Both the position numbers and the translations under genes were made by a program. From Synergistaceae bacterium (GTDB lineage: Bacteria > Synergistota > Synergistia > Synergistales > Synergistaceae), in contig JAISZL010000062.1 of the NCBI GenBank assembly GCA_031269245.1, positions 5,016-69,015 of the forward strand: a stretch of 64,000 nucleotides of DNA. The letters are read 5' to 3'. Of the stretch, positions 1,087 to 14,551 are shown in pieces. Positions within the stretch are counted from its first letter, which is position 1; every line of letters begins with the position of its first letter. The notes under the pieces were generated by a model that had not been told where the DNA came from, made no database searches, and was given only the letters and a program-made list of their open reading frames with translations.

Positions 1087-1234
1087 TTTCGTTTTTTATC
1101 ACTTTGCAATGTCCGAATGATAACCACTATTCGACGATATGTACAGACTCGGGTTTATGCCGGATAATATACCGCACTTCTTATCCTGAGCGGGGAGGCG
1201 TTCCCACCTGAGTATCGTTGCCGGAGCTAAATAT

Positions 1235-2797
1235 TTGCGCGCCGCCCTCTCGCGGCTGCTTACGGTCAAGAGCGCGCGAGGGGTGTCGTTCGTCATATAC
1301 GTGATTACCATGTTGAGCAAGATCCTCGGCTATCTGAGGACGTTGATCGTTGCGTGGGCTTTCGGCACCGGGGCCGGCATGGACGCGTTCCACGTGGCGA
1401 ACGGGATCATAAGCCTGTTCGCGGGGAGCGTGGGGCAGACGCTGGAGAACGTCGTCCTGCCCGAGATCGTGCGCGTGAGGGAGACGACGGGTGACGTGCC
1501 GGCCTGCCGGCAGATAGCGGCCTTCATGTCATGCCTGCTGATACCCCTTACGGCGCTCTTCTGCGTTGCGGTGTTCATAGCTCCGGGCGTGCTGATCGGC
1601 TTTTTTGCGAGTGGGTTCGACGCGGAGCGGGTGCGCATGGGCGCGTCGATGCTCTGGTGGCTGCTGCCGTTTGCCGCCATAACGATGTACAAGCCGATGC
1701 TGGACTTATGGGCGCTCTTCACCGGGCGATTCACCCTGTCCGCCATATGCTCGTCCGTCTACAACCTAGTGGCCATCCCAACCCTGCTGCTCGGCATCCC
1801 TATGATAGGTGTCTACTCCGTCGGCCTCTCGACGAGCCTTGGTAATGGGGTGGCGTTCGCCCTCTTCGCGGCGGCGCTCGGCGGCGTGCCGCTGGTCTGG
1901 AGGATGAAAGATTTCCCGTGGCGGAGCATCGCCCGGATCGCCAAGAATTTCGTCTTCATGATGATCATCATCGCGGCGAGCACCATCTTCGTCATTGTGG
2001 ACAGGTATTTCGCATCACGTCTTCCCGGGGGGTCGGTGGCTGCGATCAGCTACGCCGCTGGGATAATGAGCATAGTCTCGCTCGCCGCCACGTCCCCGAT
2101 GAGTTTCTTCCTGTCCAGGATCAGTTCTCTCGCGGTTTCCAGCGCGGACGAGTCTCGCAGGACGGTCGAGAGCACGCTCGCGCTGGCCCTGGCATATTTC
2201 ATACCGGCGGGCGTTTTTCTGATGGTCTCGGCGAAACCCCTGATAGCGCTGGTTTACGGGTGGGGCAACTTCGACGCGAGGTCCGTCGGGATGACGTCGA
2301 CGTGCCTTTCGGCCTACAGCGTGAGCTTCGCCGTGTCCATAAGCGCCACGGTGATATACCGCTATGCGCAGGCGCTGCAGCGTCTTGGCACCATAGCCGC
2401 GCTGACCTACTGCCTGGTATTCGTCAACGCGTTTCTCGACTGGGCCATGGTGGGCCGCTGGGGCCTCATGGGCCTCGCGCTCGCCACGAGCATCACGCAG
2501 ACTCTGTCGTTCGTGCTGTACTACGCGGTGGTGATGAGGGGTTCCCCGCTGTCTTTCCTGATTCGCGTGAGGTTCTTTCACCAGATCGCCCTGGCGATGG
2601 TTTTCGCGTCCTCCGTATGGTATGCGGGGCGTTGGGGGTTAGCGGCCCAGGGCGCGTCCGCTCCGGCCGCCGCGGCGCTCTATCTCGCCGCCGCCGAGCG
2701 CCTTGGACTCATGCCGCGCGTGCCGGAGCACTGGCGTCCGTCGAGACTGGTGAAGTTTCTCGTGTCGGCCGCCGAGTCTTGCGTCAAAAGAAAATGA
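1235..2797 (+). CDS. murJ: Lipid II flippase MurJ/MviN family
   Basis: 520-aa polytopic membrane protein. N-terminus LSKILGYLRTLIVAWAFGTGAGMDAFHVA matches the MurJ signature (SRxLGxxR...FG....DAF). TTG start at 1235; alternative ATG at 1310. Confidence 0.8.
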   Translation: MRAALSRLLTVKSARGVSFVIYVITMLSKILGYLRTLIVAWAFGTGAGMDAFHVANGIISLFAGSVGQTLENVVLPEIVRVRETTGDVPACRQIAAFMSCLLIPLTALFCVAVFIAPGVLIGFFASGFDAERVRMGASMLWWLLPFAAITMYKPMLDLWALFTGRFTLSAICSSVYNLVAIPTLLLGIPMIGVYSVGLSTSLGNGVAFALFAAALGGVPLVWRMKDFPWRSIARIAKNFVFMMIIIAASTIFVIVDRYFASRLPGGSVAAISYAAGIMSIVSLAATSPMSFFLSRISSLAVSSADESRRTVESTLALALAYFIPAGVFLMVSAKPLIALVYGWGNFDARSVGMTSTCLSAYSVSFAVSISATVIYRYAQALQRLGTIAALTYCLVFVNAFLDWAMVGRWGLMGLALATSITQTLSFVLYYAVVMRGSPLSFLIRVRFFHQIALAMVFASSVWYAGRWGLAAQGASAPAAAALYLAAAERLGLMPRVPEHWRPSRLVKFLVSAAESCVKRK

Positions 2798-2802
2798 GGC
2801 GC

Positions 2803-2842
2803 AAAAAAAATCGAGGCCATGGACTGCCTCCGGGGCCTCGAT
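2803..2842 (-). terminator. Intrinsic terminator of nox (may also stop murJ read-through)
   Basis: GC-rich hairpin ATCGAGGCC...GGCCTCGAT, followed on the minus strand by T8 (A8 at 2803-2810 on plus). Confidence 0.55.
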
Positions 2843-2919
2843 TTCGCGATCAACAGGTTGGTTTTGATGCGGCTCCCGCGCTTGTCCAAACCTGTTTTAA
2901 CGCTTTACCATGTTAGACC
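2842..2919 (+). repeat. Copy A of the ATACCAATT-type structured repeat family (internal part only)
   Basis: Shares TTCGCGrTCAACAGG and AAACCTGTTTTAACGCTTyACC with 60414-60478, roughly three quarters identical by eye. Lies between the nox stop codon and its terminator. Confidence 0.7.
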
Positions 2920-4257
2920 TTACACTGGAGGCAGCGCCTGATGGGCCGCGCTGTTCAGGAAGTTCCACGGTTTGTTGAAGTGCGGCTGGAAGAAGAAGTC
3001 GACGAACGCCAATTCGTCCACCGTCATATCGTTCTGTACGCAGACCGATATGGTGTTGATGGCAGGCGTCAGATCCGCCTTCGATATAATTTGCGCACCG
3101 AGTATCCTGTGCGTGCCGCTCTCGTAGACCAGCTTGAGCTTTACCTGCTCGTAGGTCGGCATGAACTCCGGGCGGTAGTTGTCGCTGAACGTCACGGATT
3201 GCGCGTCGAAGCCGAATTTCTTGGCCGACTCCTCGGAGAGCCCGGTGCTCGCGATGCAGAGATCGTATATCTTTATCCCGCTCGTGGCCTGGGTGCCTAA
3301 GTACTTCGTCGTGTCGCGCTTCAGGTTTCTGGCGACGAGCAGCCCCATGCGGACCGCGTTCGTCGCGAGCGGTATGTAGTCGTGCGCGCGCTTGACGTTG
3401 TTCCACACCGTGGCGGAGTCGCCGGCCGCGAACACGTCAGGGCGGGACGTGTGCATGTACTCGTCGACCTTGATCGCCCCGTTGGGCAGCATGTCGAGCT
3501 TGTCGCGGAAGATGTCCGTGTTCGGGCGGAATCCTATGCAGAGGATCACAAGGTCCGCTTTGTACTCACCCTTGTCGGTCACTATCGCCGAGACCTTGCC
3601 GCCCTCGCCCTTGAACGATTTTACGCTCTCGCCCAAGGCGAATTTGACCCCGCGCTCCGCGAAGAGGCGGGTGGGCTCCTCCACGAACTCGCTGTCCAGG
3701 TATTTCGGCAGTATCTGGCGCTCCATGTCGACGACGATGACCTCCTTGCCCTGTACCTCGAAGGCCTCGATGAGCTCCGTCCCGATGTATCCGGCGCCGA
3801 CCACCGCCACCCTGCGCGCGTCCTTCGTCTTGGCCGCTATCTCCTGCGCGTGGGCGAAGTTCTTGCAGAGGAGGATGTTCTCCAGGCCGCTGTTCTCGAT
3901 CTTGGGCTGTATCGGCCATGACCCGGACGTGATGACGAGTTTGTCGTAAGTGTCGTCGAACTCCTCGCCCGTCATGAGGTTTTTGGCGCGTATTTTCTTG
4001 GCGTCGAAGTCCACGCTCAGGACGTCGTGCCTCATCCTCGCGGTGACGCCAAGCTCCGCTAGCTTCTCCGGGGAACAGTAGAAAAATCCGTTTACGTCCT
4101 TCACAATGCCCTCGACGTAGAGGGCGATGCCGCACGACAGAAATGAAATGTTGTCGTTGCGTTCGTACACCGTGATCTGCGCGTCCTTATGCAGATTTGC
4201 CGTGTTCAATATTGCCGCGGTTCCCGCGTGCGTGCACCCTATAACTATGACTTTCAT
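2920..4257 (-). CDS. nox: NADH oxidase / CoA-disulfide-reductase family flavoprotein (H2O-forming Nox type)
   Basis: MKVIVIGCTHAG dinucleotide fold, redox Cys in SFLSCG, second GxGxxG VAVVGAGYIG, AAGD motif. ATG 4257 has a GGAGG 8 nt upstream; the GTG at 4266 overlaps that SD. Confidence 0.85.
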   Translation of the reverse strand: MKVIVIGCTHAGTAAILNTANLHKDAQITVYERNDNISFLSCGIALYVEGIVKDVNGFFYCSPEKLAELGVTARMRHDVLSVDFDAKKIRAKNLMTGEEFDDTYDKLVITSGSWPIQPKIENSGLENILLCKNFAHAQEIAAKTKDARRVAVVGAGYIGTELIEAFEVQGKEVIVVDMERQILPKYLDSEFVEEPTRLFAERGVKFALGESVKSFKGEGGKVSAIVTDKGEYKADLVILCIGFRPNTDIFRDKLDMLPNGAIKVDEYMHTSRPDVFAAGDSATVWNNVKRAHDYIPLATNAVRMGLLVARNLKRDTTKYLGTQATSGIKIYDLCIASTGLSEESAKKFGFDAQSVTFSDNYRPEFMPTYEQVKLKLVYESGTHRILGAQIISKADLTPAINTISVCVQNDMTVDELAFVDFFFQPHFNKPWNFLNSAAHQALPPV

Positions 4258-4333
4258 TATACGCACCTCCTGGTTTGTTTTTTAGGACATGTCACTAATC
4301 TAAAATGATTATTATTATAGATATAATACCCCT

Positions 4334-5209
4334 ATGAGTAAATACCCCATTCTGCTAATATTTCGCGAAGGAAGATCAATTTATTTCATGTATTTCATGG
4401 GAGGCGCTAAGGTGGTGGATGAGGGAAAACTCATATTTCGCAGCATGATGGCGTTGTTCGGAGCGCTGGGCCGGTTTCCGCGGACTCGCTTTTCCGGCGA
4501 ATTTCCGGGATTGGCCCTTTTCGACAGCGGGGTGGGCTCGAGTTACGAGAACTACGCGATGCTTTCGCCTCGCGCGGCGCCGAGCGCTCTGGCGGACGCG
4601 GTGGAGTTCGGGCTGGATTTTTTCGCGCGCACCGGCCGGTCTCACGTGTGGCCGATATTCGAATGGATCCCGGATGATATATGCGCTATTTTGGAGAGGG
4701 CGGGGCTCAGGAGGGACGAGGATTTTTACGCGATGGCGGCCGACGTTCGCTTGGACAGCGGCTGCGGCGCGCCGTCCGGCGTAGTCGCGGACGCCTCTGT
4801 CAGGGAGGGTTGCGCCGTCCGCGAGTGGGCGTCGTGCGCGTGGTTCGGTTTCGAATCCGGCGAGCCCTTCCCTGAGGAGTACGTCGAGTACGCCCAAAAC
4901 ATGGCGAGCCTCGGCGAAATTTCCCTCATCGCCGCGCGCCTGGCGGCATCGGGAGAGGCGCCGCCAGGCGAGATTGCCGCTACGGGCATGTCGTTCGTCT
5001 CCGAGGGGATCTGGGGCATATACAACATATCGACGCTCCCGAAATATCGCAGGCGCGGTTTGGCCATGGCTGTGGTGCGCGAGGCGATGCGGCTGTCGCG
5101 GAGCTCCGGCGCGGAGCGAGCCGCCCTGCTCGCCACCCCGGAGGGACGGCCGCTCTATCTTCGCTGCGGCTTCGCGGATGAGGGCGCGGTGAAAATTTTC
5201 GTCCGATAG
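4334..5209 (+). CDS. GNAT family N-acetyltransferase
   Basis: C-terminal acetyl-CoA motif YRRRGLAMAVV...LLATPEGRPLYLRCGF. The true start is probably downstream of 4334. Confidence 0.65.
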   Translation: MSKYPILLIFREGRSIYFMYFMGGAKVVDEGKLIFRSMMALFGALGRFPRTRFSGEFPGLALFDSGVGSSYENYAMLSPRAAPSALADAVEFGLDFFARTGRSHVWPIFEWIPDDICAILERAGLRRDEDFYAMAADVRLDSGCGAPSGVVADASVREGCAVREWASCAWFGFESGEPFPEEYVEYAQNMASLGEISLIAARLAASGEAPPGEIAATGMSFVSEGIWGIYNISTLPKYRRRGLAMAVVREAMRLSRSSGAERAALLATPEGRPLYLRCGFADEGAVKIFVR

Positions 5210-5302
5210 GGTGTCCGGTCACGGCAATTTTAGATATGCCGCTTTTCCTCCGATAAATTATATGGAGCGAGGACTGCGGAGTTATCCAGGTTTTTTGAGG
5301 AT

Positions 5303-5722
5303 GTGATTGGTATGTACGGACAGCCCGGCGATTTGCCTAAGAATTTGCGCATTGACGCCTTTCATGAGGTGCCCTCCGTCTCGGAGGTGAACAGGGTGAA
5401 GAAAAAAGGCCGAAAGCGCGGTGCCGTCTCCGACGTCGCATGGAAGGACGCGCTGGCGGAGAGCGTGTGCGGCGCCAGTGTAGGGGCGTCGGAAACGGTG
5501 GAGGAGAGAGCCGAGGTGGTCGAGAAGGCTGCTTGGGAAGAGCCGCCGGACTCGATCAGCCCCGAGACCGTGCGCCGAGGCGGAGGGGATGAAGCGGAGT
5601 TCGACTCCATGCTGGAGGAGATTCGAAGGATGGCGGAGGTACCCGAAAAACTGCTGGAGTCGCACCTAGGCGTGTTCATCGAACCGGCGCCGCCCGGGAA
5701 GATATTGAACTCGCGGGGGTAG
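5303..5722 (+). CDS. Hypothetical acidic protein
   Basis: 139-codon ORF with G/C-rich third positions like neighbouring genes. No recognisable motif. Confidence 0.4.
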   Translation: MIGMYGQPGDLPKNLRIDAFHEVPSVSEVNRVKKKGRKRGAVSDVAWKDALAESVCGASVGASETVEERAEVVEKAAWEEPPDSISPETVRRGGGDEAEFDSMLEEIRRMAEVPEKLLESHLGVFIEPAPPGKILNSRG

Positions 5723-5830
5723 GCTGGGCCTGAACCATGACGCCTTGGCGAGCGTTTTACGCGATGTTTCATAAGGGAGGAGTTGCGCGATGCCGCCAGC
5801 ATCCTAGTGAGGTGAACCCTCGGGTATGCC

Positions 5831-6322
5831 ATGCGTGATGAGCCGGGCAGCCTTAGGAGATATCTGGCCGGCTCGGCGTACGCGAAAATTCAGGGCGGTG
5901 CAGCCGGCTCGGCGTGCCGTGTCACGATAACGGATGGCGACGCGGTAACCAGGATGCTGCGCGCCGACGCCGCGCTCTCCGTTATTTTGGACAGGCTTCA
6001 TGGTATGAGGGATTTGGCGGAGCGTTGCGCCTCCACGCCGCTCGCGGAGGCGCAGCGCCTGTCGTGCCAGGCCGATGTGGACAGGCTGAAGGACGACATA
6101 TCGAGGATATCCGGCGCAATCGCCAGGGCAGAGGGCTCGTTCGGCGGTTTGGCGGCGAGCGAAGAAATAGAGGAAAGCTTGAGGCGCATCGACAAGTCAG
6201 TCGACCGCGTATCACGGATGGCCGACTGCCTCTCCTCGAGAAAAAACGACGAGAGGATATCCGGATGGATGGACTCCATTTACGGCCCGCAAAAAATGGA
6301 GCGACCCAAATCCGCGGGTTGA
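5831..6322 (+). CDS. Flagellin N-terminal-domain-like protein, degenerate and C-terminally truncated (possible relic)
   Basis: KIQGGAAGSA aligns to the flagellin RINxAxDDAAGLA motif. ILDRLHGMRDLAERCAS...RLSCQADVDRLKDDISRIS aligns to ILQRMRELAVQAAN...RQAIQxEIxQLxxEIDRIA. There is no flagellin C-terminal domain. Confidence 0.35.
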   Translation: MRDEPGSLRRYLAGSAYAKIQGGAAGSACRVTITDGDAVTRMLRADAALSVILDRLHGMRDLAERCASTPLAEAQRLSCQADVDRLKDDISRISGAIARAEGSFGGLAASEEIEESLRRIDKSVDRVSRMADCLSSRKNDERISGWMDSIYGPQKMERPKSAG

Positions 6323-6348
6323 TGAATTTGAATCACAGTAGATTCCGT

Positions 6349-6483
6349 CGCGAGACCGTTTATCGCTTTGCGCAAGTCCGTGGCTCCGCACACTAGATAT
6401 ATCTTTGCTCCGAAAAACTTCAGCATAGCCCGCCGGCGCTCTTGGAACAGGTGACTGACTATTTGGCGCTTACCATTTGACAA
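6349..6483 (-). mobile_element. IS66-family relic (first ~26 codons of accessory gene tnpB/orf2)
   Basis: MLKFFGAKIYLVCGATDLRKAINGLA matches the IS66 Orf2 N-terminus (xIYLACGxTDMRKxIDGLA). Similarity stops abruptly after this, and there is no DDE transposase. Confidence 0.6.
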
Positions 6484-6501
6484 TGTCAGTTCGCCGGTTT
6501 G

Positions 6502-8697
6502 TCATTTCCGCGTCATCGTCCAAACGCCGTCCCAATTTTGCGGCGGGTTTTGCGCGAGTTTCATCGCGCGGTTGGCGAATATGCCATACAGAGTTCTTTC
6601 GGGATAGTCGCGGCTCATTTCGTTGAACGCCGCTTGGGCTTCATAAAAATTTCCAGCCAGGTAAATTTCCACCGCCGAGGACCATCTTTCGAACTCTTCC
6701 CCGCGCGTCCGCCATTCCTCCGACCGCATTGGGGCGTAGATTTTTATCGGCTCGCTCTTCCCTTTCACCCTTATCGTGTCGAGATACTGATACGCGAAGG
6801 ATTTCCCCGCCTCGCTCATGGTGCCACCGCTCGTCACTGCCGGCACGCCGTACTCGGGGCACAATCCCTCCAGGCGCGATGCGAGGTTCACGTTGTCCCC
6901 TATCAGTGTGTAATTCACCAGATCGCGCGAGCCCATGTTGCCGACATACGCCGTGCCGGTGTGTATGCCCGCTCCCATTCGCAACGTCAGGCCGAAATCC
7001 GCCTTCAGTTCGGCGTTCAGGGCTTCAAGGCGCTCGCCCATCGACAGCGCCGCCTCCAACGCGCGGCTGGCGTGATCCGGTGTCTCGACCGGGGCGTTCC
7101 AGAACGCCATCAGCGCGTCGCCTATGAATTTGTCCAGCGTGCCGTCGCTCTCCTGCACCAGCGCCGTCATCGGCGTGAAATAGCGGTTCAGCAGGTTCAC
7201 CGTCTGCCGCGGTGTGAGCCGCTCGGATATCGACGTGAACCCCCGTATGTCGGTGAAAATTATGGACAGCGTCCGTTCCTCGCCGGCCAGCAGATCGCCC
7301 TTCTCCAGCATCACGCGGTTCGCCACCCTGGGCGAGACGTAACGCGAGAAAGTCGCCTTGATGCGTTTCTTCTGCCTGTTTTCCTGCCAGAAGCGCAGGA
7401 CAAGGGTCAGCGCGCCGCTCATCGCGACCGTCAACACCGCGTACATCGGCGACACGAAATAGCCTTTCGTGAAAAGATACCTCGCGAGGCATATAGGCGT
7501 GCCCGCCATGCCCGCCGCGAGCGGGACGTACAGTACCGGGGAGGCGAACGCGAACAGCGCCGCGGAGAGGATTCCGGCCATGAAGATATACGCCAGTTGC
7601 ATGTCGGCCGTCCATGAGGGCATGACGATCGAATTTCCGGCGAGCAGCGCGTCAATGACGGCGGCGTGGACTTCCACTCCGGGATAGACTCTGTCCAGCG
7701 GAGTGGCGCGAATGTCGAGCAGTCCGGCCGACGATGTCCCGACGAAGGCGATCCTGTCCAGCAGTTTGTCGCTGGGGATTTTCCCCTTCAGCACGTCCGC
7801 GGCACTGTAGTAGGGATATGTCCTGCTCGGCCCGATGAAGGGGATATACATCTCGCCGCGCGGGTTCACGTTCGCGCCTAAGCGCCCCATTAGCACGGAT
7901 TCCAGTCCGTCGGGGCCGGACGTGACCATTATGTCGGACGTCCCGGCGGCGGTCATCAGGGCGCGCAGCGCGAGCGACGGGTAAATGTACTCGCCGGCCC
8001 GGAGTATCAGTGGGATTTTGCGCATGATGCCGTCGGGATCGGGATCGATGTTGATGAAACCCACAGCCGAGTTCGCCCTAAGGGATGGGAGAGGCAGGAT
8101 GGCTCCATTCGACGACGACAGGCGCGGTTCGTACGGAATCGCGCCAGGACGTTCCCTCAGATGGATTTTTAACGCGTGAGCCCCGTCAGGCGCTTCGGCT
8201 TCGGCGGCGGAGCTTGCGTAAGCCCCCAGAACGACGGGTGATTTTGCCGCCGCGTCCGCGAACAGGGCGTCATAATCGCGCAACTGGTCCGGCAATCCAG
8301 TGAAATCCACGCTTATGCCGCAGTCGCGCCTGAGATACGACGCCACCTGTGACGGCGAGGAGTTGTCGGATTCGGCGAAAATTATGTCTATGCCGATCGC
8401 CGCCGCGCCGTAATCACGGAGCGCGTTTACGAGGTCGGCGACGAGATAGCGCGGCCAGGGCCACTGGCCAAGCTCGGAGAGCGACGCCTCGTCTATGTCG
8501 ATTATGACGGGGACGTCCGACGGCGACGATGCCGCGCGCAGGGGGAGCAGCATGTCGTATATCCTGAAATCGAGCCGCGTGAGAGTGGCAGGCCGCGAGA
8601 CGCAGATCACGGCCATCGCCGCGATCACGAACGCGCCTACGGTAAACGCGGTGAAGGCTCTGCCGCGGAACTGTCCCGCCGCCATATATTCCGTCAT
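6502..8697 (-). CDS. CHASE2 sensor domain-containing class III adenylate/guanylate cyclase
   Basis: N-terminal TM, a large periplasmic domain, then 3 TM. Cyclase motifs IIFTDIRGFTS, DKFIGDALMAFWNAP, GDNVNLASRLE. TPR-like tail. The start overlaps the upstream stop. Confidence 0.85.
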   Translation of the reverse strand: MTEYMAAGQFRGRAFTAFTVGAFVIAAMAVICVSRPATLTRLDFRIYDMLLPLRAASSPSDVPVIIDIDEASLSELGQWPWPRYLVADLVNALRDYGAAAIGIDIIFAESDNSSPSQVASYLRRDCGISVDFTGLPDQLRDYDALFADAAAKSPVVLGAYASSAAEAEAPDGAHALKIHLRERPGAIPYEPRLSSSNGAILPLPSLRANSAVGFINIDPDPDGIMRKIPLILRAGEYIYPSLALRALMTAAGTSDIMVTSGPDGLESVLMGRLGANVNPRGEMYIPFIGPSRTYPYYSAADVLKGKIPSDKLLDRIAFVGTSSAGLLDIRATPLDRVYPGVEVHAAVIDALLAGNSIVMPSWTADMQLAYIFMAGILSAALFAFASPVLYVPLAAGMAGTPICLARYLFTKGYFVSPMYAVLTVAMSGALTLVLRFWQENRQKKRIKATFSRYVSPRVANRVMLEKGDLLAGEERTLSIIFTDIRGFTSISERLTPRQTVNLLNRYFTPMTALVQESDGTLDKFIGDALMAFWNAPVETPDHASRALEAALSMGERLEALNAELKADFGLTLRMGAGIHTGTAYVGNMGSRDLVNYTLIGDNVNLASRLEGLCPEYGVPAVTSGGTMSEAGKSFAYQYLDTIRVKGKSEPIKIYAPMRSEEWRTRGEEFERWSSAVEIYLAGNFYEAQAAFNEMSRDYPERTLYGIFANRAMKLAQNPPQNWDGVWTMTRK

Positions 8698-10715
8698 CCG
8701 CCGGCGGCGGTCTCCTGGAACCTTGCGTATATTTCGGCCAGCAGCGCCTTCATGCCAAGCATGTCATCCACGAGGGCCGGGTCGAAATGGCGTCCGGACT
8801 CTTTTTTCAGCAGGCCCAGCGCGTCGCCGAAACTCCATGGCTTCTTGTAACACCTAGGGGAGACCAGTGCGTCGAACACGTCCGCCACCGCTGTTATCCG
8901 CGCTTCCAGTGGGATGTCCCCGCCGGACAGTCTCCCCGTGTCGGACGAACCGGCGTAGCCTGAGCCGTCCCATCTCTGGTGGTGATGCAGAGCTATGTCG
9001 TAGGCGCTCCGCGCTATATCGCCGGGTTCTTCGGCCAGTATCGACGCGCCCTTTTCCGTATGTCCGCGCATTATCCTGAATTCATCGTCCGTGAGGCTAC
9101 AAGGTTTTTTCAATATCAGATCGCTAATCCCGACTTTCCCTATGTCGTGCAGCATGGCGGCGAGGCGTATCCGGCTCTTTCCCACGCGTATCTCGTCGAT
9201 GGGGCGTCCTTCGCCTTTCGCCCGGGCGTGGTACAATTCGGAGGCTATCGCCCCCACGCGCTCGGCGTGCGCGCTGGTCTCGCTGGGGTCATGGACGCTG
9301 GCCATACGCAGTATGCTGTAAATCTCGCGTTTTTCGGCCATGCTGCGCTCGATTATGCTTCCCACCTCGCGCGCGAGAATCCTGACGTTGTGCGCCATGT
9401 TCAGAGTGAAGGGACACGGGAGGCCCGTGCGCGGATCGATGCTGTTTATCACCTGCATCACGCCGGCCACGCCGCCCGTATTGTCGAAGAAAGGTATCAC
9501 GAGCATCGAACTAGTGTAATAGCCGCTCGCACGGTCAAACGAATCGTTGAAGGAGTACGGCGCGCCCGGCGGAAGCCTGTGAACGTCGTCGATCACGAGC
9601 GGAGTCCTCGTCGAGGCGACATAGCCCGCTATGGAAGTCTTGGAGATCTGTATCCTGATATTCGCGTAAATATGTTTGTGCGCGGTGTCCACCGGGAAGA
9701 GCGTGTCGTTGTGCGTATATGAAAATACCAGTTCGTCCTTGTCGCGCAGGTAGATAGTCCCCGCGTCCGCGTGAGTTATTTCGCGGGTTTTGGCCAAAAT
9801 CCTGTCGAGCAGCGCGTTCTCGTCGCTGTAGCGCGACAGTTCGTCCAGAAACAGCAGCAGCCAGTCGCTGCCGTGGCGCTTGAATGGTACCGGGCCGAGA
9901 GGAGTGAAGCGCATCCCTTCGCGCGCGACGTAGGCGTTTACGCCGCCGTCCTCCGCGATGAGCGCGAGCGTCTGATCGAGCCTGTCGAGTTCCTGGTCGG
10001 AGCGCACCGGGTCGTGGTGCGTCAGCACGAGATTGCGCACGCCGCTCACGTTCGCGGCTTCGATCCAGTCCTGCCAGCGCGAGTGTCCCCAGCCGGGGCG
10101 GTAATCGTTCCAGCCGTAGGCGGCGTCAACCACCGCTATGTCCGCGCCGCTCAAAAATTCCGCCGCCGCGGCGATGCTCTCCTTTCCGCTGTCAATCTCG
10201 TGATCGCCGCTGTAAACGAAGAGCGCTCCGTCCGCGCTCGCGCGGAAGCCAAGCCCACCGCCCGGATGGTTCATGGCCGCCGCCGCCACCGTTATCCCGC
10301 TCCCGCTGGAAGACGGCACGGTGGTCACGTCGCCCGGCCCTATGAGTTTTATCCTGACGTCGCCCGTCAGTTCGCGGAAAGGGACCGGGAAAAATCCGCA
10401 CTGGTACATATGTTCGGGAAGGTATTCGAGCCATGCGGGAAGATACAGATTTGTAACCCACTTAGGCGAATGTATCGGCATGAAGAACCACAACCCGAAA
10501 ATATGATCCGCGTGGCCGTGTGAGATGAAGACATGACACTCGCCGCTCTCCGGCAGGCGCGCCCCGGCCTCGCGGATGCCAGTGCCGGCGTCGAAGTAAA
10601 TCCGCGCGCCGCGCCCGGCATTAAGCTCGACGCAGGCCGTGTTGCCGCCATAAAAAACGGTATCCGGCGACGGATTGGCGATGCTGCCGCGCACTCCCCG
10701 CAGTATTACCTCCAT
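8694..10715 (-). CDS. MBL-fold hydrolase - GAF - HD-GYP three-domain protein
   Basis: HGHADH (HxHxDH) near the N-terminus, central GAF-like region, C-terminal HDIGKVGI ... HHQRWDGSGYAG (variant of HHExxDGxGYP). No TM segments. Confidence 0.8.
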   Translation of the reverse strand: MEVILRGVRGSIANPSPDTVFYGGNTACVELNAGRGARIYFDAGTGIREAGARLPESGECHVFISHGHADHIFGLWFFMPIHSPKWVTNLYLPAWLEYLPEHMYQCGFFPVPFRELTGDVRIKLIGPGDVTTVPSSSGSGITVAAAAMNHPGGGLGFRASADGALFVYSGDHEIDSGKESIAAAAEFLSGADIAVVDAAYGWNDYRPGWGHSRWQDWIEAANVSGVRNLVLTHHDPVRSDQELDRLDQTLALIAEDGGVNAYVAREGMRFTPLGPVPFKRHGSDWLLLFLDELSRYSDENALLDRILAKTREITHADAGTIYLRDKDELVFSYTHNDTLFPVDTAHKHIYANIRIQISKTSIAGYVASTRTPLVIDDVHRLPPGAPYSFNDSFDRASGYYTSSMLVIPFFDNTGGVAGVMQVINSIDPRTGLPCPFTLNMAHNVRILAREVGSIIERSMAEKREIYSILRMASVHDPSETSAHAERVGAIASELYHARAKGEGRPIDEIRVGKSRIRLAAMLHDIGKVGISDLILKKPCSLTDDEFRIMRGHTEKGASILAEEPGDIARSAYDIALHHHQRWDGSGYAGSSDTGRLSGGDIPLEARITAVADVFDALVSPRCYKKPWSFGDALGLLKKESGRHFDPALVDDMLGMKALLAEIYARFQETAAGG

Positions 10716-10716
10716 A

Positions 10717-11994
10717 TCAGAAACTCCATACGAGGCCTAGGGTGACGAGATGTCTGCCGTATTCGCGCAGAGATGAGTTGGACTCGTTGTGAGTATAGCT
10801 GTAATCCATCTCCGCGCTCCACACTTCGTTTATCCTGTATGCCGCTCTCAGCCCCGCGCGAAAGCGTCTGTCGCGGCGATCGGCCGTTTCGAGCACGGTT
10901 GCCGGCGCGCCGTAATTTTCCTCGGCGTAGAGCAGCGACGGGGAAATTTCCCAGCGATTTTTGAGCTTGAAGCGCATCGAGGTCGAAACTTCCCAACCGT
11001 CCCAGGACGCGCGGGCGGTTTCGGCGTCGGCCCACAGGCCTCGGGCGCCGACGATCAATTCGTGTCCCCGTTCGCCGAAAACGAACCGCGCGTATTGCCC
11101 TATGAAGGAATAAGTCCCGTCGTAATCGCCGTTGCGGACGTAGTCGCGCCGTTCGAGGCCGGCGCGCGTCACGAGATGGAACGAGCCGGAGAGTGCTTTA
11201 GTGTACGTGAGTTCGGCTCCTAAGGAGTAGACCGTGTTGTAAAAATCATAGTCGAAAACCTCGCCCTTGAGCCGCAGGTCGAAGAGTGATGCGGGCGCGG
11301 AGTGGCGAATTCCGCCCGCGATACGGTACCACTGCGAGTAATCCTGATCCAGCGAGCGCAGTCCGGCCGAATCGAGCGCGCGGATATAAAAGTGAGCGTC
11401 GCCAACGACCCACCAGGGACCGCCGCGCGATGTGCGGTACGCCGCGTCGTAGTCGCCGGCGATCCATCCGCCTAAGCCTCCCTGTTCCGTGGAGTCGCCG
11501 GGTATGGTGACGATGAAATTTCCCAGCGCCAGTCTGTCGGAGCCGGGGCCCTGATTGCCGTTGCTGTCGGACATGAGGCCGAAGCGGAGCTTGCCCTGGG
11601 ACTGGAACCTGCTGTACGCTTTTCCAGCTCGGGAAGCCCAAGCGGATATGTCGTCCGGCGCGAGGGACGCGTCGCGTGAGAGATATCGCGTCGCCATGTC
11701 GGAGTCGCCGATGGACATGTAAGCGTTCGCGATCTCGCGGTAGAGGCGAAATTCCGCCGGATATTTGGCGATGAGGCGCTCATAAGCCATTATGGCCTGA
11801 TACGGGCGTGAGGACGACGCGGACGCGCGGGCGAGGCCGAAGTTCACCTCGTCGCTGCCGGGGTCTTCTCGCAGGAGTGCGAGATATATTGGGTAAGCCT
11901 CCTCCGCGCGCCCCGCAAGCAATAATTCCGCCGCGCGGGCCAAGTCGGATGAAACATCCGCAAACGCCGGCACCGTAAATAGACACATAAACAA
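10717..11994 (-). CDS. TPR + C-terminal beta-barrel outer-membrane protein (Slam/DUF560-like architecture); 5' end disrupted by a homopolymer frameshift
   Basis: TPR-like N-terminal third. Alternating beta-strand pattern ending ...VTLGLVWSF (terminal Phe OMP signature). The TTG-start ORF keeps only a stub signal peptide, MFMCLFTVPAFA. Confidence 0.65.
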   Translation of the reverse strand: MFMCLFTVPAFADVSSDLARAAELLLAGRAEEAYPIYLALLREDPGSDEVNFGLARASASSSRPYQAIMAYERLIAKYPAEFRLYREIANAYMSIGDSDMATRYLSRDASLAPDDISAWASRAGKAYSRFQSQGKLRFGLMSDSNGNQGPGSDRLALGNFIVTIPGDSTEQGGLGGWIAGDYDAAYRTSRGGPWWVVGDAHFYIRALDSAGLRSLDQDYSQWYRIAGGIRHSAPASLFDLRLKGEVFDYDFYNTVYSLGAELTYTKALSGSFHLVTRAGLERRDYVRNGDYDGTYSFIGQYARFVFGERGHELIVGARGLWADAETARASWDGWEVSTSMRFKLKNRWEISPSLLYAEENYGAPATVLETADRRDRRFRAGLRAAYRINEVWSAEMDYSYTHNESNSSLREYGRHLVTLGLVWSF

Positions 11995-12020
11995 AAAAAC
12001 TAGACAAAAAAATTTAAGGC

Positions 12021-12037
12021 GGGGGGGGGGGGGGGGG
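12021..12037. repeat. G17 (C17 on the coding strand) homopolymeric tract
   Basis: Direct read: ...aaggc g(17) cacccc... Confidence 0.95.
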
Positions 12038-12094
12038 CACCCCTGGATATTTTGTCATTTTAAATAATTTATTCATCTCCATTGCCGCTCACCC

Positions 12095-13465
12095 CTAATT
12101 TACCGACGTGACGGAGCCGTCCGGCAGCGGGCCGTCAAATCCGACGGTATCGAATTCTACACGAAAACGATAGTCGGTATTGCCGTTTTGCTGCAAAATC
12201 AAAGCGCCGTGAACGGCGTCACCCACGTCCGAATAACCGGAAGGCGCGGATACTTCCAAAAGTGTTGCGTCTAGATCCAACATATCATGCTCTTCGACTG
12301 CCTCTTGTTGTGTCGTTATATGGCCGCCCGAATTCGAAGGGTCGAAACGGATCTCCGCGGTTCCGGAGTCAAACATGCCCTCGCCGCCGGTTAAATCGAA
12401 GAGCCCATACAACCCCGTCACGTAATCATCACCCTCAATTGATAGTATATGAAATTTTCCGCTCGCTACGCCGGAGGTAATAGCCCCGGAATTCAGATTT
12501 ACGTCGAAGCCGTAAGAGAAGCCATCAGATATCTCAACAGACACGACGAAAGACAAAGTCGAATTCATCTCAGTCAAAGGAATGTTGTGATACGTCGTCC
12601 CCGCGTTTGCGGAGAACTCCACATGCGCCAATTCCGGCCCCGCCGGGATCGGCGCCGGAATTGGCTCCGTCGGGACTGGGGCCGGAATTGGCTCCGGCTG
12701 GGAAACCGCGACTTCCGCGCCGAACGGGCGCTCCATGATATCTGCCGCCGGATTCACCGCGATATCCCCCTCCCCAGGCGCCGCGCCCTGCGCTTCCTGC
12801 CAGACTGGCGGCAGTCCCGAGACCTCGCCGCCGCTAGGCAAGACTATGGCGTTCGTGTCCTCCTCCTCCTCGCCGGGGGCGAGCGGCACGATTTCCGTCT
12901 CTCCATCTCGGAGCAGGGTTATCTTGAAGGTCTCGGGCACGGCGATGCCGTTCACTACGACCGTTTTGTCGCTGTTGAAAACTTTGACCGTGGTGTGCCT
13001 GTCGTCGGCCTCGACGTATAAAATCGTGCCGCGGATCCCGATCGTCGCGAGAGGCGTCGTGAGTTCGAAGCCCTCGGGGTTGCTCTCCGTGATCGTCCCT
13101 GTGATTATCCGCACCGCGCCCTGAAACAGATTTGCCGCGAAGTTGGACTCCGAGCCCGCGTCCGCGTATGAGGCCATGTCAAACGCCGACCCCGGCGCGA
13201 TGTTCACCGTGCTGCCGTCGCTGAAGAGAATCTGAATTTTTCCGCCCTCTCCCGTGAGTATGGAGTCCGACACGAAAACCGGGTCTTTGAGCGTCAGCGG
13301 AACGCGTGAGCCCGCGCGCACGACCTCGACCGGCCCCGACGCCGCGATCACGGTAGCTATCGGCTCGGGCGAGGCGCCAAGCGCCGGGCTCCCAAGCGCC
13401 GCCCACAAAACGCACGCCACGATGAAGAGACGCCCCAAAACAGTCGCAAGCAATTTTTCGTTCAT
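12095..13465 (-). CDS. FecR-domain secreted protein with Pro-rich linker and beta-rich C-terminal domain
   Basis: Signal peptide MNEKLLATVLGRLFIVACVLWAALGSPALGA. FecR-like VEVVRAGSRVPLTLKDPVFVSDSILTGEGGKIQILFSDGSTVNIAPGSAF. GGGAGAGAAG SD before ATG 13465. Confidence 0.75.
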   Translation of the reverse strand: MNEKLLATVLGRLFIVACVLWAALGSPALGASPEPIATVIAASGPVEVVRAGSRVPLTLKDPVFVSDSILTGEGGKIQILFSDGSTVNIAPGSAFDMASYADAGSESNFAANLFQGAVRIITGTITESNPEGFELTTPLATIGIRGTILYVEADDRHTTVKVFNSDKTVVVNGIAVPETFKITLLRDGETEIVPLAPGEEEEDTNAIVLPSGGEVSGLPPVWQEAQGAAPGEGDIAVNPAADIMERPFGAEVAVSQPEPIPAPVPTEPIPAPIPAGPELAHVEFSANAGTTYHNIPLTEMNSTLSFVVSVEISDGFSYGFDVNLNSGAITSGVASGKFHILSIEGDDYVTGLYGLFDLTGGEGMFDSGTAEIRFDPSNSGGHITTQQEAVEEHDMLDLDATLLEVSAPSGYSDVGDAVHGALILQQNGNTDYRFRVEFDTVGFDGPLPDGSVTSVN

Positions 13466-13938
13466 AAACTTCTCTCCCATCATACCCGATTTTCACTGCT
13501 ACGTAATTATAGCAAGTATAACATAAACCTACAATTCCCGCAAAAAACAACCTCCATATGATCAAGCATTAATCGGAGAAAGGATATTCTTCAAATAACC
13601 CCGAAATGTTTCAATAGAGTGCGTGTGGAGAGGTAAGCGGAGCGATTTTGGCAGAAAATATTTTTTTCCTCGACGAAAGCCCCTTATTGTTGTATTCTTA
13701 CGAAAATATGCGGCGCCTTTTGAGGGTATTTGAGTATTGACATGGCGCGCAGGGCAAAAGATCTGATTTTTACGGCGCTATCGCGGTCTTTTGCCAGTAA
13801 GTCAGAGGTATTTCGAGAAACGCAAGGGTTTCCTCCGTTTAGGCGTCGTTTCGGGCGGCGTGAATGCCGGGCGTGTTTGAAGCGGATGAAGCTTGAGTTT
13901 CGCCAAAATACAAAAATCTTTTGTTGGGGGGCATAGGC

Positions 13939-14325
13939 ATGTTGTGGACCAAGTCGCTGGAAACCGGGATAGAAGCTATAGACAATCAGCACAAGGAGCT
14001 CTTTCGTCAGATAGATATTCTGCTGGATCCAGGGAAGGCGAATAGGGTGAGGGACACGCTGGATTTTCTCGAAAAATACATAGCGAAGCACTTTTCCGAC
14101 GAGCAGGGTATGCACATCAAGGCCAAGTACCCTAAGGCCGCGGAGCACAAGAGCTACCACGACAGCTACATAGTGGTCTTCCGTAATTTGAAAGGGAAAT
14201 ATCTCAAGGAGGGGCCGAGCCCGGCGAACAACATAGCCGTCAATAAAAACGTGATAGGATGGCTCAAGGATCACATACTGGTTCACGACAAGGATTTCGC
14301 GGAATATTTTAAGTCGCTGCCGTAG
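13939..14325 (+). CDS. Bacteriohemerythrin
   Basis: MLWTKSLETGIEAIDNQHKELF ... HFSDEQ ... WLKDHILVHDKDF iron-ligand His/Asp pattern. Confidence 0.85.
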   Translation: MLWTKSLETGIEAIDNQHKELFRQIDILLDPGKANRVRDTLDFLEKYIAKHFSDEQGMHIKAKYPKAAEHKSYHDSYIVVFRNLKGKYLKEGPSPANNIAVNKNVIGWLKDHILVHDKDFAEYFKSLP

Positions 14326-14551
14326 ACCGTCTTTCGAGAGTGCGGCGTCTGACTCGTCAAAACTGCCGGGACGCAATCAGCGCGGAGTGGGAGGTTCTCC
14401 GCTCGATGAGGAATAAACGCGGTGCTTTGATAAAAAAATAACTAATTTTATCCATCGAATATTGCGTAAAAATGAATCTTCAGTTATCCTTTGTGGGTAA
14501 CGCGCAACTTGAAGGATTAGGTGAGCGTTTGTTCAGCAGGGAGGTGTCCTC

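Follow-up and report, generated by a model that had tools for sequence, protein, structure and literature searches.

The window (the whole stretch of 64,000 nucleotides that was analysed) contained four open reading frames on the minus strand, at 12095–13483/13465, 10717–11994, 8694–10715 and 6502–8697, as claimed in the earlier note. The junctions described there were also present: a 1-nt gap separated the stop of the outer-membrane protein (OMP) gene from the start of the phosphodiesterase (PDE) gene, and the PDE stop and the cyclase start overlapped by 4 nt in ATGA. All the domain calls made previously held in a Pfam search of the four proteins, P0001–P0004 (Table 1). The longest reading frame of the FecR gene began at 13483, and its start was likely the ATG at 13465, which was preceded by a Shine-Dalgarno sequence, GGGAGAGAAG. 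The OMP gene had been taken to start at 11994, the TTG of the listed frame; instead, it opened at an ATG at 12082 with a Shine-Dalgarno sequence, AGGGGTGAG, and its frame was shifted by a C17 tract. The sigma-70-like match 5' of the FecR gene agreed at 9 of 12 positions, which did not exceed the level in shuffled sequences, and the hairpin 3' of the cyclase gene was not enriched relative to shuffles. A TATAAT-like box was also read in the sequence closer to the FecR gene start than the listed match.

Table 1. Features of the four-gene locus (positions in the window)
Feature	Position	Strand	Remarks
Sigma-70-like promoter match (weak)	13586..13614	-	5' of FecR gene; consensus match alone
Gene 1, Sec-exported FecR-domain protein P0004	12095..13465	-	Pfam FecR, 54 bits
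Gene 2, Slam/DUF560 (T11SS-type) OMP P0003	10717..12082	-	Frameshifted at C tract
C17 homopolymer (G17 on + strand)	12021..12037	-	Within signal-peptide coding part of gene 2
Gene 3 domain 1, metallo-beta-lactamase (MBL)-fold hydrolase, candidate cyclic-nucleotide phosphodiesterase	9876..10715	-	P0002 residues 1–280
Gene 3 domain 2, GAF, candidate cAMP-binding regulator	9357..9818	-	P0002 residues ~300–453
Gene 3 domain 3, HD-GYP phosphodiesterase	8694..9272	-	P0002 residues ~482–673
Gene 4, CHASE2 receptor adenylate cyclase P0001	6502..8697	-	Pfam CHASE2, 199 bits; Guanylate_cyc, 85 bits
Terminator-like hairpin (weak)	6421..6435	-	67 nt 3' of cyclase stop; pattern match only

The FecR-domain protein was composed of a signal peptide, a FecR head (residues ~43–215), a proline-rich disordered linker (residues ~217–284) and a beta-rich tail (residues ~285–462), with a single hydrophobic N-terminal segment (residues 9–38). 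Its structure model had pLDDT values of 85–93 in the head. The head was matched to the PupR CCSSD (Z 16.1, rmsd 2.7, 134 aligned residues; Foldseek E value 6e-5) and to BDI_1681 (Z 15.4). For the tail, the model showed a small barrel of 8 strands at a low pLDDT of 40–78; its similarity to known barrels was middling, with Z scores of 8–9 against 8-stranded OmpA-like barrels and 6.4 against each of the Slam cargo barrels HpuA and NHBA. TbpBBD and Lipoprotein C were absent from the tail in the Pfam search, and weak NCBIfam matches to LipL45/Lsa33 and retention_LapA were found.

The head thus shares the fold of the C-terminal cell-surface signalling domain of PupR, whose binding partner is the signalling domain that an outer-membrane transducer exposes in the periplasm. 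Unlike the FecA–FecR–FecI and PupB–PupR systems, the locus has no TonB-dependent transducer, transmembrane anti-sigma segment or ECF sigma factor; a TPR domain takes the place of the STN domain as partner, and the output is a nucleotide cyclase. Residues 39–132 of P0004 also superposed on the cell-surface anchoring domain of MpIBP (5ix9) with a Z score of 8.2 and an rmsd of 2.0 over 74 of 76 residues at 30% identity. The LapA/MpIBP retention module, with its LapE pore and LapD/LapG c-di-GMP control, shares the concept of a cyclic-nucleotide-controlled periplasmic plug that holds a protein traversing an outer-membrane pore. However, LapE is TolC-like while the barrel here is Slam-like, and RTX repeats and LapG/LapD are lacking; the likeness is only a resemblance and not membership.

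The outer-membrane protein contained a signal peptide, a periplasmic TPR domain (residues 14–126) and a 14-stranded beta-barrel (residues 130–424), and was modelled with a pLDDT of 90.7. In Pfam it matched TPR_19 and, weakly, several barrel families, including SlipAM/DUF560 (PF04575) at 20.4 bits, under the cut-off of 22. Within its family, PF04575 was found in 26 of 28 members and TPR_Slam (PF24575) in 9. The closest Atlas clusters were all SlipAM+TPR proteins (TM 0.69–0.80), and the PDB neighbours were BcsC, OmpG and CymA. The family matches and the Atlas neighbours answered the earlier suggestion of a DUF560/Slam check in the affirmative and place P0003 among the Slam/DUF560 (type 11 secretion-type) proteins.

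A complex of the FecR protein with the TPR protein, one of the predictions that the earlier note had proposed, was modelled with an ipSAE of 0.78 (0.79, 0.78 and 0.78 in separate runs), and the best of three controls gave 0.00. Of 80 solved complexes, 58 attained the mark applied to such models, as did 2 of 110 mismatched pairs. The contacts agreed to at least 54%, and partner pLDDT was at least 66. The head contacted TPR residues 38–103, and the tail contacted the barrel loops L1 and L4–L7 on the outer side. Because the PDB contains no Slam complex, a score carried over from a solved structure is unlikely. By this model, the FecR protein is predicted to bind the OMP. The output of the tool consists of contacts without coordinates and ignores the membrane; the placement of head and tail at opposite faces does not prove passage of the linker through the lumen.

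P0002 matched Lactamase_B_2 (62 bits), GAF (43 bits), HD (68 bits) and HD_5 (91 bits). In its MBL domain, the HxHxDH motif, H150, D171, H211 and H233/H234 were invariant among 11 orthologues, and all metal motifs were kept. The closest PDB matches of this domain were RNase Z/ElaC, with a weak match to Apyc1. The first PDB relative of the GAF domain was PmGH of Persephonella marina, followed by the cAMP/cGMP-binding GAF domains of CyaB2, PDE5 and PDE2, and cAMP is its candidate ligand. The GAF–HD-GYP part was aligned with PmGH (4mcw) at 159 bits (E value 1.6e-45), with E...H, HD, K, H, HH and D in register, and the metal-ligand positions of PmGH (equivalents of E185, H189, HD, K, H250, HH and D305) were all kept. 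The motif HHExxDGxGYP was replaced by HHQ(K/R)W(D/N)GxGY(A/P/T) in all operon-linked orthologues; with HHE changed to HHQ and GYP to GYA in a conserved manner, the substrate could be one other than c-di-GMP. PmGH and Tlr0485 share the GAF–HD-GYP architecture, to which P0002 adds the N-terminal MBL hydrolase domain. A conserved MBL–GAF–HD-GYP partner with the HHQ...GYA signature is new here.

The cyclase P0001 was composed of a transmembrane helix TM1 (residues 12–40), a periplasmic CHASE2 domain (residues 28–378), a transmembrane bundle (residues 366–436), a class III catalytic domain (residues 476–650; nt 6748–7272) and a helical tail. The catalytic residues noted earlier were present in the motifs FTDIRGFT, DKFIGD and NYTLIGDxVNLASR, and were invariant in orthologues. 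Lys of DKFIGD and Thr of YTLIG formed the substrate pair of class IIIb, and both metal Asp residues and the Asn/Arg pair were kept; these residues did not vary among 18 orthologues. They were aligned to Cya2/6fht, in which a Glu-to-Lys change makes an adenylate cyclase. By its residue set, P0001 is a class IIIb adenylate cyclase. It was the sole PF00211 match and the sole PF05226 match of the genome, and hence its only class III cyclase. One unlinked Crp-type regulator was present in the same genome.

The four-gene set was found in at least 16 of 38 fetched related loci from four phyla, far above chance. Carriers included two related genomes (G004 and G005), Synergistales MS499-57, Desulfovibrio (including D. 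desulfuricans SFAD67), Zoogloeaceae and Helicobacteraceae (L032). Gene order varied only between the pairs FecR–OMP and PDE–cyclase, which form two sub-modules. Comparison at the sequence level thus supports the four genes as one conserved module. The FecR–OMP pair was also coupled to CHASE2–SpoIIE and CHASE2–HD-GYP proteins and therefore accompanies CHASE2 irrespective of the domain that gives the output. Several loci (L015, L016, L025 and L030) had FecR–OMP pairs with no CHASE2 gene within 10 kb, and one genome (G024) had a CHASE2 cyclase without the pair; the coupling is thus frequent but not obligatory.

The earlier claim that no characterised system has this composition was overstated. 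NsrA–CyaK of Sinorhizobium meliloti (with CyaD1/CyaD2 and Clr) is a characterised fused analogue, in which FecR, TPR and barrel are followed by a CHASE2 class III adenylate cyclase in one operon, with nsrA overlapping cyaK by 1 nt. Experiments showed that without NsrA, an external protein signal (uL2) is not perceived and cAMP is not produced (PMC7529298, PMC13001267). The FecR heads of NsrA and P0004 are homologous (hhalign probability 96%). However, NsrA is a single 1200-residue polypeptide, whereas FecR and TPR-barrel are encoded here by two genes. Its barrel (residues ~600–1200) is about twice as large, was not matched by SlipAM and showed no detectable homology to the P0003 barrel. NsrA also lacks a separate beta-barrel-like tail and a homopolymer switch, and its operon lacks a phosphodiesterase gene. 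The clustering of CHASE2 cyclase, phosphodiesterase, FecR and TPR genes, the same four types as here, was noted in Campylobacterota by Mo et al. (mBio 2022; PMC9239204) as probably horizontally transferred among phyla; the Helicobacteraceae locus L032 is among the relatives. That note is a single bioinformatic paragraph, free of experiments, in which the TPR protein was not identified as a Slam/DUF560 barrel, the MBL–GAF–HD-GYP fusion was not described and the FecR protein was called an outer-membrane protein.

We consider the locus, with a probability of about 0.5, to be an operon for cAMP signalling across the envelope that is shared horizontally and represents the NsrA–CyaK kind in split form, made up of two sub-modules. 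The first would be an outer-membrane sensor unit, in which Sec exports the FecR-headed protein, the head docks onto the TPR domain that the Slam/DUF560-type barrel protein has in the periplasm, and the proline-rich linker and small barrel-like tail engage the barrel, with the tail at the outer face as in the model. The pair would act like a type 11 secretion pore holding a retained, partly surface-exposed cargo. The second would comprise the enzymes of the cytoplasmic membrane and the cytoplasm. By analogy with NsrA–CyaK, the periplasmic CHASE2 domain of the cyclase would sense the state of the sensor unit and set cAMP synthesis. The GAF domain of P0002 would most likely take up the cAMP made by the cyclase, and the HD-GYP domain would then hydrolyse c-di-GMP, giving cross-talk from cAMP to c-di-GMP as in Tlr0485. 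The MBL domain may reset the signal as a cAMP phosphodiesterase, and the Crp-type regulator may be a second cAMP output.

The split-operon reading has to be set against type 11 secretion proper. In the Slam systems (Slam1/2, NilB, HrpB, HsmA), the OMP likewise consists of a periplasmic TPR and a 14-stranded DUF560 barrel. The cargo genes (TbpB, LbpB, fHbp, HpuA, hemophilin) directly adjoin the pore gene, and the cargo joins a head that varies, at the N terminus, to a C-terminal domain of the kind modelled here as an 8-stranded barrel. It is unlikely, however, that FecR–OMP is a plain secretion pair, with the FecR-headed protein fully exported, onto the surface or into the medium, to serve in adhesion or binding like LipL45/Lsa33, FecR-domain lipoproteins of Leptospira, and with the cyclase and phosphodiesterase only regulating it or co-regulated and passing no protein-level signal to CHASE2. 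The Slam family membership, the cargo-beside-pore gene syntax, the tail match to HpuA and NHBA, the weak LipL45/Lsa33 matches and the pairs without nearby CHASE2 would all suit such a pair. Against it, the FecR head of NsrA is fused N-terminal to TPR and barrel and so stays periplasmic, cyclase signalling depends genetically on NsrA (PMC7529298), and the P0004 head sits on the periplasmic TPR in the complex model. The three outputs of the linked CHASE2 receptors (cyclase, SpoIIE and HD-GYP) point to CHASE2 itself as the partner, and CHASE2 kinases without a Slam pore likewise have FecR-domain proteins as partners (PMC5192318). Type 11 secretion has been described from Proteobacteria (PMC8406197; 10.1101/2024.09.26.615229), in papers from which the words FecR, CHASE2 and cyclase are absent, while the present OMP subfamily also occurs in Synergistota, Desulfobacterota and Campylobacterota. 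The FecR head lies outside the described cargo types, the tail has no TbpBBD or Lipoprotein C match, and the pair, for which secretion is putative, is linked to a second-messenger enzyme. A different question concerns P0002. The earlier picture of one writer and two erasers stood for the cyclase, with its adenylate-cyclase residues, and for the MBL domain, which remains a candidate cAMP eraser, but is doubtful for the HD-GYP domain, which resembles the c-di-GMP hydrolase PmGH. Tlr0485 of Thermosynechococcus is a GAF–HD-GYP c-di-GMP phosphodiesterase activated when its GAF domain binds cAMP, which fits a P0002 gene adjoining an adenylate cyclase gene. From these two relatives, a role of the HD-GYP part as a c-di-GMP hydrolase under cAMP control, a receiver and output, is more likely than one as a cAMP eraser. 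That both MBL and HD-GYP hydrolyse the cyclase product (cAMP or cGMP), with the GAF domain giving product feedback, appears rather improbable, since the characterised HD-GYP enzymes all use cyclic dinucleotides (c-di-GMP, 3'3'-cGAMP), PmGH is the closest structure, six GGDEF proteins in the genome put c-di-GMP on hand, and two erasers of one messenger in a single polypeptide would be redundant. In its favour, each half separately adjoins CHASE2 cyclase genes: a stand-alone MBL homologue (hhalign E value 2.8e-59) overlaps one in Ensifer, and GAF–HD-GYP alone adjoins one in G020. The subfamily-wide HHQ...GY(A/P/T) motif leaves room for an altered substrate, and the Campylobacterota neighbour is termed a cAMP-hydrolysing phosphodiesterase in PMC9239204 by annotation, not assay.

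The C17 tract bears on whether the module works in this genome. With 16 or 19 C residues, the OMP frame would encode 454/455 residues with a normal signal peptide, whereas 17 C residues brought a stop after 22 codons; the module may thus be non-functional here, the OMP gene being broken as assembled. The tract is a candidate slipped-strand ON/OFF switch, in the OFF state as assembled. A fixed inactivating mutation that made the OMP gene a pseudogene, or a homopolymer miscount, with regulated phase variation in neither case, seems a poor prospect, although the assembly is a 98-contig draft, homopolymers of length 17 are difficult to size, and the absence of the tract from the in-frame orthologues of G005 and G004 speaks against any conservation of it as a regulatory device. 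The other three genes were intact, the remaining OMP frame had 425 stop-free codons, and a one-base change gives back a full signal peptide that matches the orthologues. Several other G/C tracts of 13–19 nt were present, as is typical of contingency loci: tracts of at least 13 nt numbered five across the genome versus ~0.5 expected by our own arithmetic, and besides the C17 tract at least one more was no further than 24 nt from the 5' end of a long frame. Should the C17 tract be genuine, slippage would flip the sensor unit ON and OFF and, with it, the cAMP input. A candidate homopolymer switch in the pore gene is new relative to the known systems.

The operon was composed of four open reading frames on the minus strand of the window (13483–6502), which encoded a FecR-domain protein (P0004), an outer-membrane protein (OMP, P0003), an MBL-GAF-HD-GYP protein (PDE, P0002), and a CHASE2 cyclase (P0001). 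All of the domains that the earlier note had named from the sequence were confirmed by Pfam, with FecR in the first protein, TPR and a barrel with weak porin and SlipAM matches in the second, Lactamase_B_2, GAF, and HD/HD_5 in the third, and CHASE2 and a class III cyclase in the fourth. The packed junctions it described were also found, with 1 nt between the OMP stop and the PDE start and an ATGA common to the PDE stop and the cyclase start. Promoter and terminator scans around the operon gave no more sites than shuffled sequences, and the operon boundaries were therefore drawn from the gene spacing and the unrelated flanking genes, which encode a GLUG protein, a HAD hydrolase, a GNAT protein, and a flavoprotein. 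The source assembly is a 98-contig draft of 2.34 Mb with 59% GC, and the genomes close to it are MAGs of Synergistaceae. It holds one copy each of CHASE2, FecR, and the class III cyclase domain, and its second-messenger genes included six GGDEF proteins and one Crp-type regulator. Directly downstream of the operon, a 163-codon ORF (5831–6322, plus strand) showed a sub-threshold Flagellin_N match (22 bits; cut-off 26.6). The minus-strand ORFs at 13684–14376 and 5362–5832 gave no Pfam match.

The cyclase matched CHASE2 with 199 bits (residues 28–378) and Guanylate_cyc with 85.2 bits (Pfam cut-off 21.9). Its hydrophobic segments were located at residues 12–40, 366–398, and 415–436, so that a TM helix precedes the CHASE2 domain and a TM bundle follows it. 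The catalytic domain was best aligned with the guanylate cyclase Cya2 (2w01) and with its Glu-to-Lys adenylate-cyclase derivative (6fht). The metal Asp pair and the transition-state Asn and Arg, which had been read as intact, were present in these alignments in the motifs FTDIRGFT, DKFIGD, and GDNVNLASR, and the motifs were invariant in 18 orthologues. The Lys of DKFIGD was aligned with the Glu of Cya2 and the engineered Lys of 6fht, and the Thr of YTLIG with the Gly of Cya2. By the criterion that Lys with Asp or Thr specifies ATP and Glu with Cys, Gly, or Ser specifies GTP, the residue pattern (Lys/Thr) is that of a class IIIb adenylate cyclase, which predicts ATP rather than GTP as the substrate.

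The GAF-HD-GYP part of the PDE was homologous to the GAF-HD-GYP enzyme PmGH (4mcw; E = 1.6e-45). In comparison with PmGH, the HD-GYP metal ligands (E...H, HD, H, HH, and D), the substrate Lys, and the Tyr of GYP were kept, with residue roles taken from 10.1101/2021.11.05.467447. The canonical HHExh(D/N)GxGYP was absent; the protein reads HHHQRWDGSGYA, which has Gln in place of Glu and Ala in place of Pro and retains the Tyr. The variant HHQ(K/R)W(D/N)GxGY(A/P/T) was common to every operon-linked orthologue, whereas the other HD-GYP proteins of the same loci had the canonical motif. After PmGH, the closest solved relatives of the GAF domain were the cAMP/cGMP-binding GAF domains of CyaB2, PDE5, and PDE2, and a GAF-HD-GYP enzyme activated by cAMP, Tlr0485, is known. 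In the MBL domain, the metal motif HxHxDH and the downstream His, Asp, and His residues (H66, H68, D70, H71, H150, D171, H211, H233, and H234) were invariant. Its nearest PDB profiles were RNase Z/ElaC-type phosphodiesterases (E = 1e-9 to 1e-6), and the match to the cyclic-nucleotide hydrolase Apyc1 was weak (E = 0.0016). The MBL domain reached no named cyclic-nucleotide PDE family, with NF041851 at 39 bits (cut-off 400) over part of the domain. The enzyme, conserved and always beside the cyclase, is a candidate cAMP/c-di-GMP junction with a variant HD-GYP motif.

The OMP scored 20.4 bits against PF04575 (SlipAM), just below the gathering cut-off of 22. Among the aligned members of its family, 26 of 28 matched PF04575 (best E = 6.8e-13) and nine also matched PF24575 (TPR_Slam), and one orthologue was annotated by NCBI as 'surface lipoprotein assembly modifier'. 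The predicted structure (pLDDT 90.7) was composed of seven TPR-type helices (residues 14–126) and a 14-stranded C-terminal barrel (residues 130–424). All ten of its nearest cluster types by structure in the Atlas were SlipAM/TPR_19 proteins, with TM values of 0.69–0.80. Because of the family matches, the NCBI name, and the Atlas neighbours, the OMP is assigned as a probable distant member of the Slam/DUF560/type 11 secretion (T11SS) family, whose published discussion has so far not included this phylum. In a Foldseek search of the model against solved structures, Slam was absent and the top matches were BcsC, OmpG, CymA, and general porins. A tblastn search of a plasmid collection with the OMP gave no match.

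The TTG first listed as the start of the OMP gene was corrected. The gene opens with the ATG at 12082, 12 nt past the FecR stop and preceded by AGGGGTGAG, which places a long homopolymer in the 5′ coding region, where its length sets the reading frame. With 17 C, as assembled, the frame ends after 22 codons and the gene is OFF. With 16 or 19 C, the frame is open (454/455 residues) and begins with a normal signal peptide ending AFA/DVS. The orthologues in two genomes of the same genus (G004 and G005) contained no tract; the G004 gene was in frame and the G005 protein had the N-terminus MNKSFKDRKLPGRLKFFC..., and signal peptides were clear in all other OMP relatives. Since these two orthologues are in frame without it, the tract is an insertion specific to this lineage, placed in the signal-peptide n-region. 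Five G/C homopolymers of 13–19 nt were found in the 2.34-Mb genome, against about 0.5 expected from base composition. This excess and a second tract near the 5′ end of a frame favour contingency-locus behaviour, and suggest that this Synergistaceae genome contains several contingency loci. The OMP gene may accordingly be phase-variable through its tract; phase variation would then act at the input of a second-messenger pathway, which would be rare. Two to three of the tracts clustered on contig C69.

G/C homopolymer tracts in the source genome
Tract	Contig position	Window position	Strand	Setting
C17	C26:17036–17052	12021–12037	−	Past the FecR stop, ahead of the TTG listed as the start of the OMP ORF
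G/C tract	C11:36–52
G/C tract	C11:1189–1207
G/C tract	C69:3660–3673
G/C tract	C69:15515–15527			24 nt inside a 467-codon frame

The FecR protein scored 54.2 bits against a Pfam cut-off of 24. Its model consisted of a confident head (pLDDT 85–93), a Pro-rich disordered linker, and an all-β tail of low confidence (pLDDT 40–78). For the head, structural superposition gave Z = 16.1 with the cell-surface-signalling domain of PupR, which is periplasmic, and Z = 15.4 with BDI_1681; the first half of the head also superposed on an anchoring module of the MpIBP/LapA type (Z = 8.2; 30% identical). The low-confidence tail resembled 8-stranded barrels (Z = 8–9) and the Slam cargo barrels HpuA and NHBA (Z = 6.4), the latter a middling match that would indicate the general fold only. 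The tail had no Pfam match up to E = 1 and none in the Atlas by features, and by structure reached a TM of only about 0.4. A tail acting as a pure cargo tag on non-FecR heads was rejected at locus L041, where the upstream protein, which carries a homologous tail (probability 98.7%), had a weak FecR match of 23.5 bits. For the upstream proteins of loci L033 and L036, the probability of relation to the tail was 19–32%.

The OMP (residues 13–425) and the FecR protein (residues 38–462) were modelled as a complex in three runs with three controls. The ipSAE was 0.78 in the three runs and 0.00 in the best control; among solved complexes, 58 of 80 attained that mark, and among mismatched pairs, 2 of 110 did. 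The contacts agreed to at least 54%, and partner pLDDT was at least 66. The modelling of the FecR protein with the TPR domain that the earlier note had proposed thus gave a passing complex, in which the head contacted the TPR domain. The most confident contacts were formed between head residues 44–47, 84–92, 127–129, and 152–154 and TPR residues 38–103. Residues 275–289, 328–333, 371–374, and 413–424 of the linker and tail contacted the barrel at residues that belong, by the strand order of the model, to extracellular loops L1 and L4–L7. Because the head contacts the TPR domain and the tail contacts extracellular loops, the model places them on opposite faces of the pore. The modelling output contains no coordinates and ignores the membrane, and passage of the Pro-rich linker through the barrel lumen is therefore something that we infer rather than a modelling result. 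The FecR protein is a candidate T11SS cargo, for which pore-dependent surface exposure or secretion would be predicted. The complex model is concrete enough for mutant design.

The OMP-family scan returned 38 loci, onto which eight domains were mapped. The four-gene arrangement noted in the window recurred in relatives, the complete set being found in Synergistales, in many Desulfovibrio, among them D. desulfuricans with a complete genome, and in one Zoogloeaceae MAG; in a Helicobacteraceae MAG the set was present with the MBL domain reduced to a relic. In G004 and G005 the four genes had the identical order and 72–82% identity. The orders FecR-OMP-PDE-cyclase and PDE-cyclase-FecR-OMP and a divergent arrangement of the two pairs were all seen, and the pairs FecR-OMP and PDE-cyclase were never split in the mapped loci. 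Across phyla, identity was 57–68% in the cytoplasmic domains and about 40–45% in FecR and the OMP, which suggests horizontal spread of the module with faster change of its envelope parts. The FecR-OMP pair stood on its own in several loci, GAF-HD-GYP alone adjoined a CHASE2 cyclase in the related genome G020, and, on an Ensifer plasmid, an MBL homologue standing alone (39% identical; hhalign E = 2.8e-59) lay beside a CHASE2 cyclase. Cultivable carriers, such as Desulfovibrio desulfuricans SFAD67, make the module directly testable.

CHASE2 is among the commonest extracytoplasmic sensor domains. To our knowledge, no direct ligand of it has been established, and the only input route to have been studied is that of NsrA, from a single rhizobium. 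NsrA of S. meliloti was reached with the cyclase as query, not with the OMP. On pSymB, nsrA is located directly upstream of the CHASE2 cyclase gene cyaK with a 1-nt overlap, and the protein contains FecR (residues 66–160), TPR (residues 378–587), and a C-terminal barrel; this architecture was determined directly, with the barrel range taken from PMC7529298. The window likewise encodes a FecR domain, TPR, and an outer-membrane barrel beside a CHASE2 cyclase. The FecR head of NsrA was homologous to the family of the window FecR protein (probability 96%), whereas no relation was detectable between its barrel and the window OMP (probability 8%, TPR only). NsrA is a single polypeptide, whereas FecR and OMP are split genes in the window, and whole-length homology was absent. 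For CyaK and CyaD1/D2 to perceive a plant or ribosomal uL2 protein signal, NsrA is needed (PMC7529298, PMC13001267), and by analogy a requirement of the FecR protein and the OMP for cyclase activation is a candidate role in this operon. The Clr regulon contains a FecR-domain protein and a TPR protein (PMC5498481). Mo et al. (2022, PMC9239204) noted genes for a phosphodiesterase and for FecR-domain and TPR proteins as the usual neighbours of CHASE2 cyclases in Campylobacterota, with probable spread by horizontal transfer, and CHASE2 histidine kinases of Burkholderiales and Pseudomonas are also accompanied by FecR-domain proteins (PMC5192318). In the two T11SS papers searched (PMC8406197; 10.1101/2024.09.26.615229), FecR, CHASE2, cyclase, and NsrA did not occur, and a literature search did not find CHASE2 paired with DUF560/Slam.

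The best-supported account of the operon is a split relay of the NsrA-CyaK type. Its outer-membrane unit would be a T11SS-type pore with a retained FecR-headed partner, the head of which may contact CHASE2, and its output would be cAMP. The fourth gene, the PDE, would couple cAMP to c-di-GMP hydrolysis by an HD-GYP domain under the control of GAF, and the MBL domain would probably remove cAMP; the ligands and substrates of the module are putative throughout. To this known kind, the operon adds an enzyme of three domains that is conserved and deviates in its HD-GYP motif, the recognition of the 'TPR protein' as Slam, a complex model that passes with the head on TPR and the tail on the barrel, and a C17 switch with putative phase variation. 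The operon suggests that the usual upstream partner of CHASE2 is a two-protein unit of a Slam/T11SS-type pore and a FecR-headed, barrel-tailed protein. This would extend T11SS-type proteins past Proteobacteria, and past nutrient capture and adhesion into signal transduction. A more specific reading, which we regard as rather unlikely, is that the Slam-like barrel is threaded by the FecR-headed protein, which would act as a signalling tether. The small barrel tail displayed on the cell surface would be the actual receptor, with the Pro-rich linker inside the pore lumen and the FecR head in the periplasm, parked on the TPR domain. Engagement of the tail would hand the head to the CHASE2 domain or withdraw it, so that a T11SS machine would have been recruited as a trans-outer-membrane signal wire setting cAMP and, through a cAMP-sensing GAF-HD-GYP, c-di-GMP. 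The C-tract would make this input stochastic, the whole of it being ON or OFF across the population in this species.

Several further loci showed other arrangements. In L006 (G007:C117, 1–4423), from the same genus, FecR and a Slam-like OMP were followed by a CHASE2 receptor in which the cyclase output was replaced by a SpoIIE/PP2C phosphatase, and the MBL-GAF-HD-GYP gene was absent. In L041 (Candidatus Adiutrix MAG, 4266–9172), a divergent FecR-tail protein and a Slam-like OMP were followed by a CHASE2 receptor fused directly to a canonical HD-GYP domain (HHEKWDGSGYP); by the account of a review of HD-GYP proteins, none that combines CHASE2 with HD-GYP has been characterised. L005 (G020:C194, 4136–12472), from another genus of the family, had two opposite-strand genes between FecR and the cyclase, encoding an SLH-domain protein and a DUF1565/Big_2 protein, and the 13 kb examined yielded no Slam-like OMP. 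L019 (Deltaproteobacteria MAG, 1809–11242) contained a separate MBL gene, a GAF-HD-GYP gene with a degenerate GYP region ahead of the cyclase, and, past the cyclase, a second GAF-HD-GYP gene followed by FecR and the OMP; here the PDE gene is duplicated or unfused. In L048 (Ensifer sp. PDNC004 plasmid, 1421–8890), genes for a small TPR protein and a FecR-domain protein stood in line with bacteriocin export genes of the NHLP family, while a CHASE2 cyclase and a stand-alone MBL hydrolase were encoded divergently from them; a secreted peptide system may thereby be connected with cyclases of this kind. L049 (Paracoccus aminophilus pAMI5, 212–8112) contained a TPR protein, a 655-residue FecR protein, and a CHASE2 cyclase, and a neighbour annotated as cyclic-nucleotide-binding and patatin-like phospholipase is a candidate local cAMP effector.
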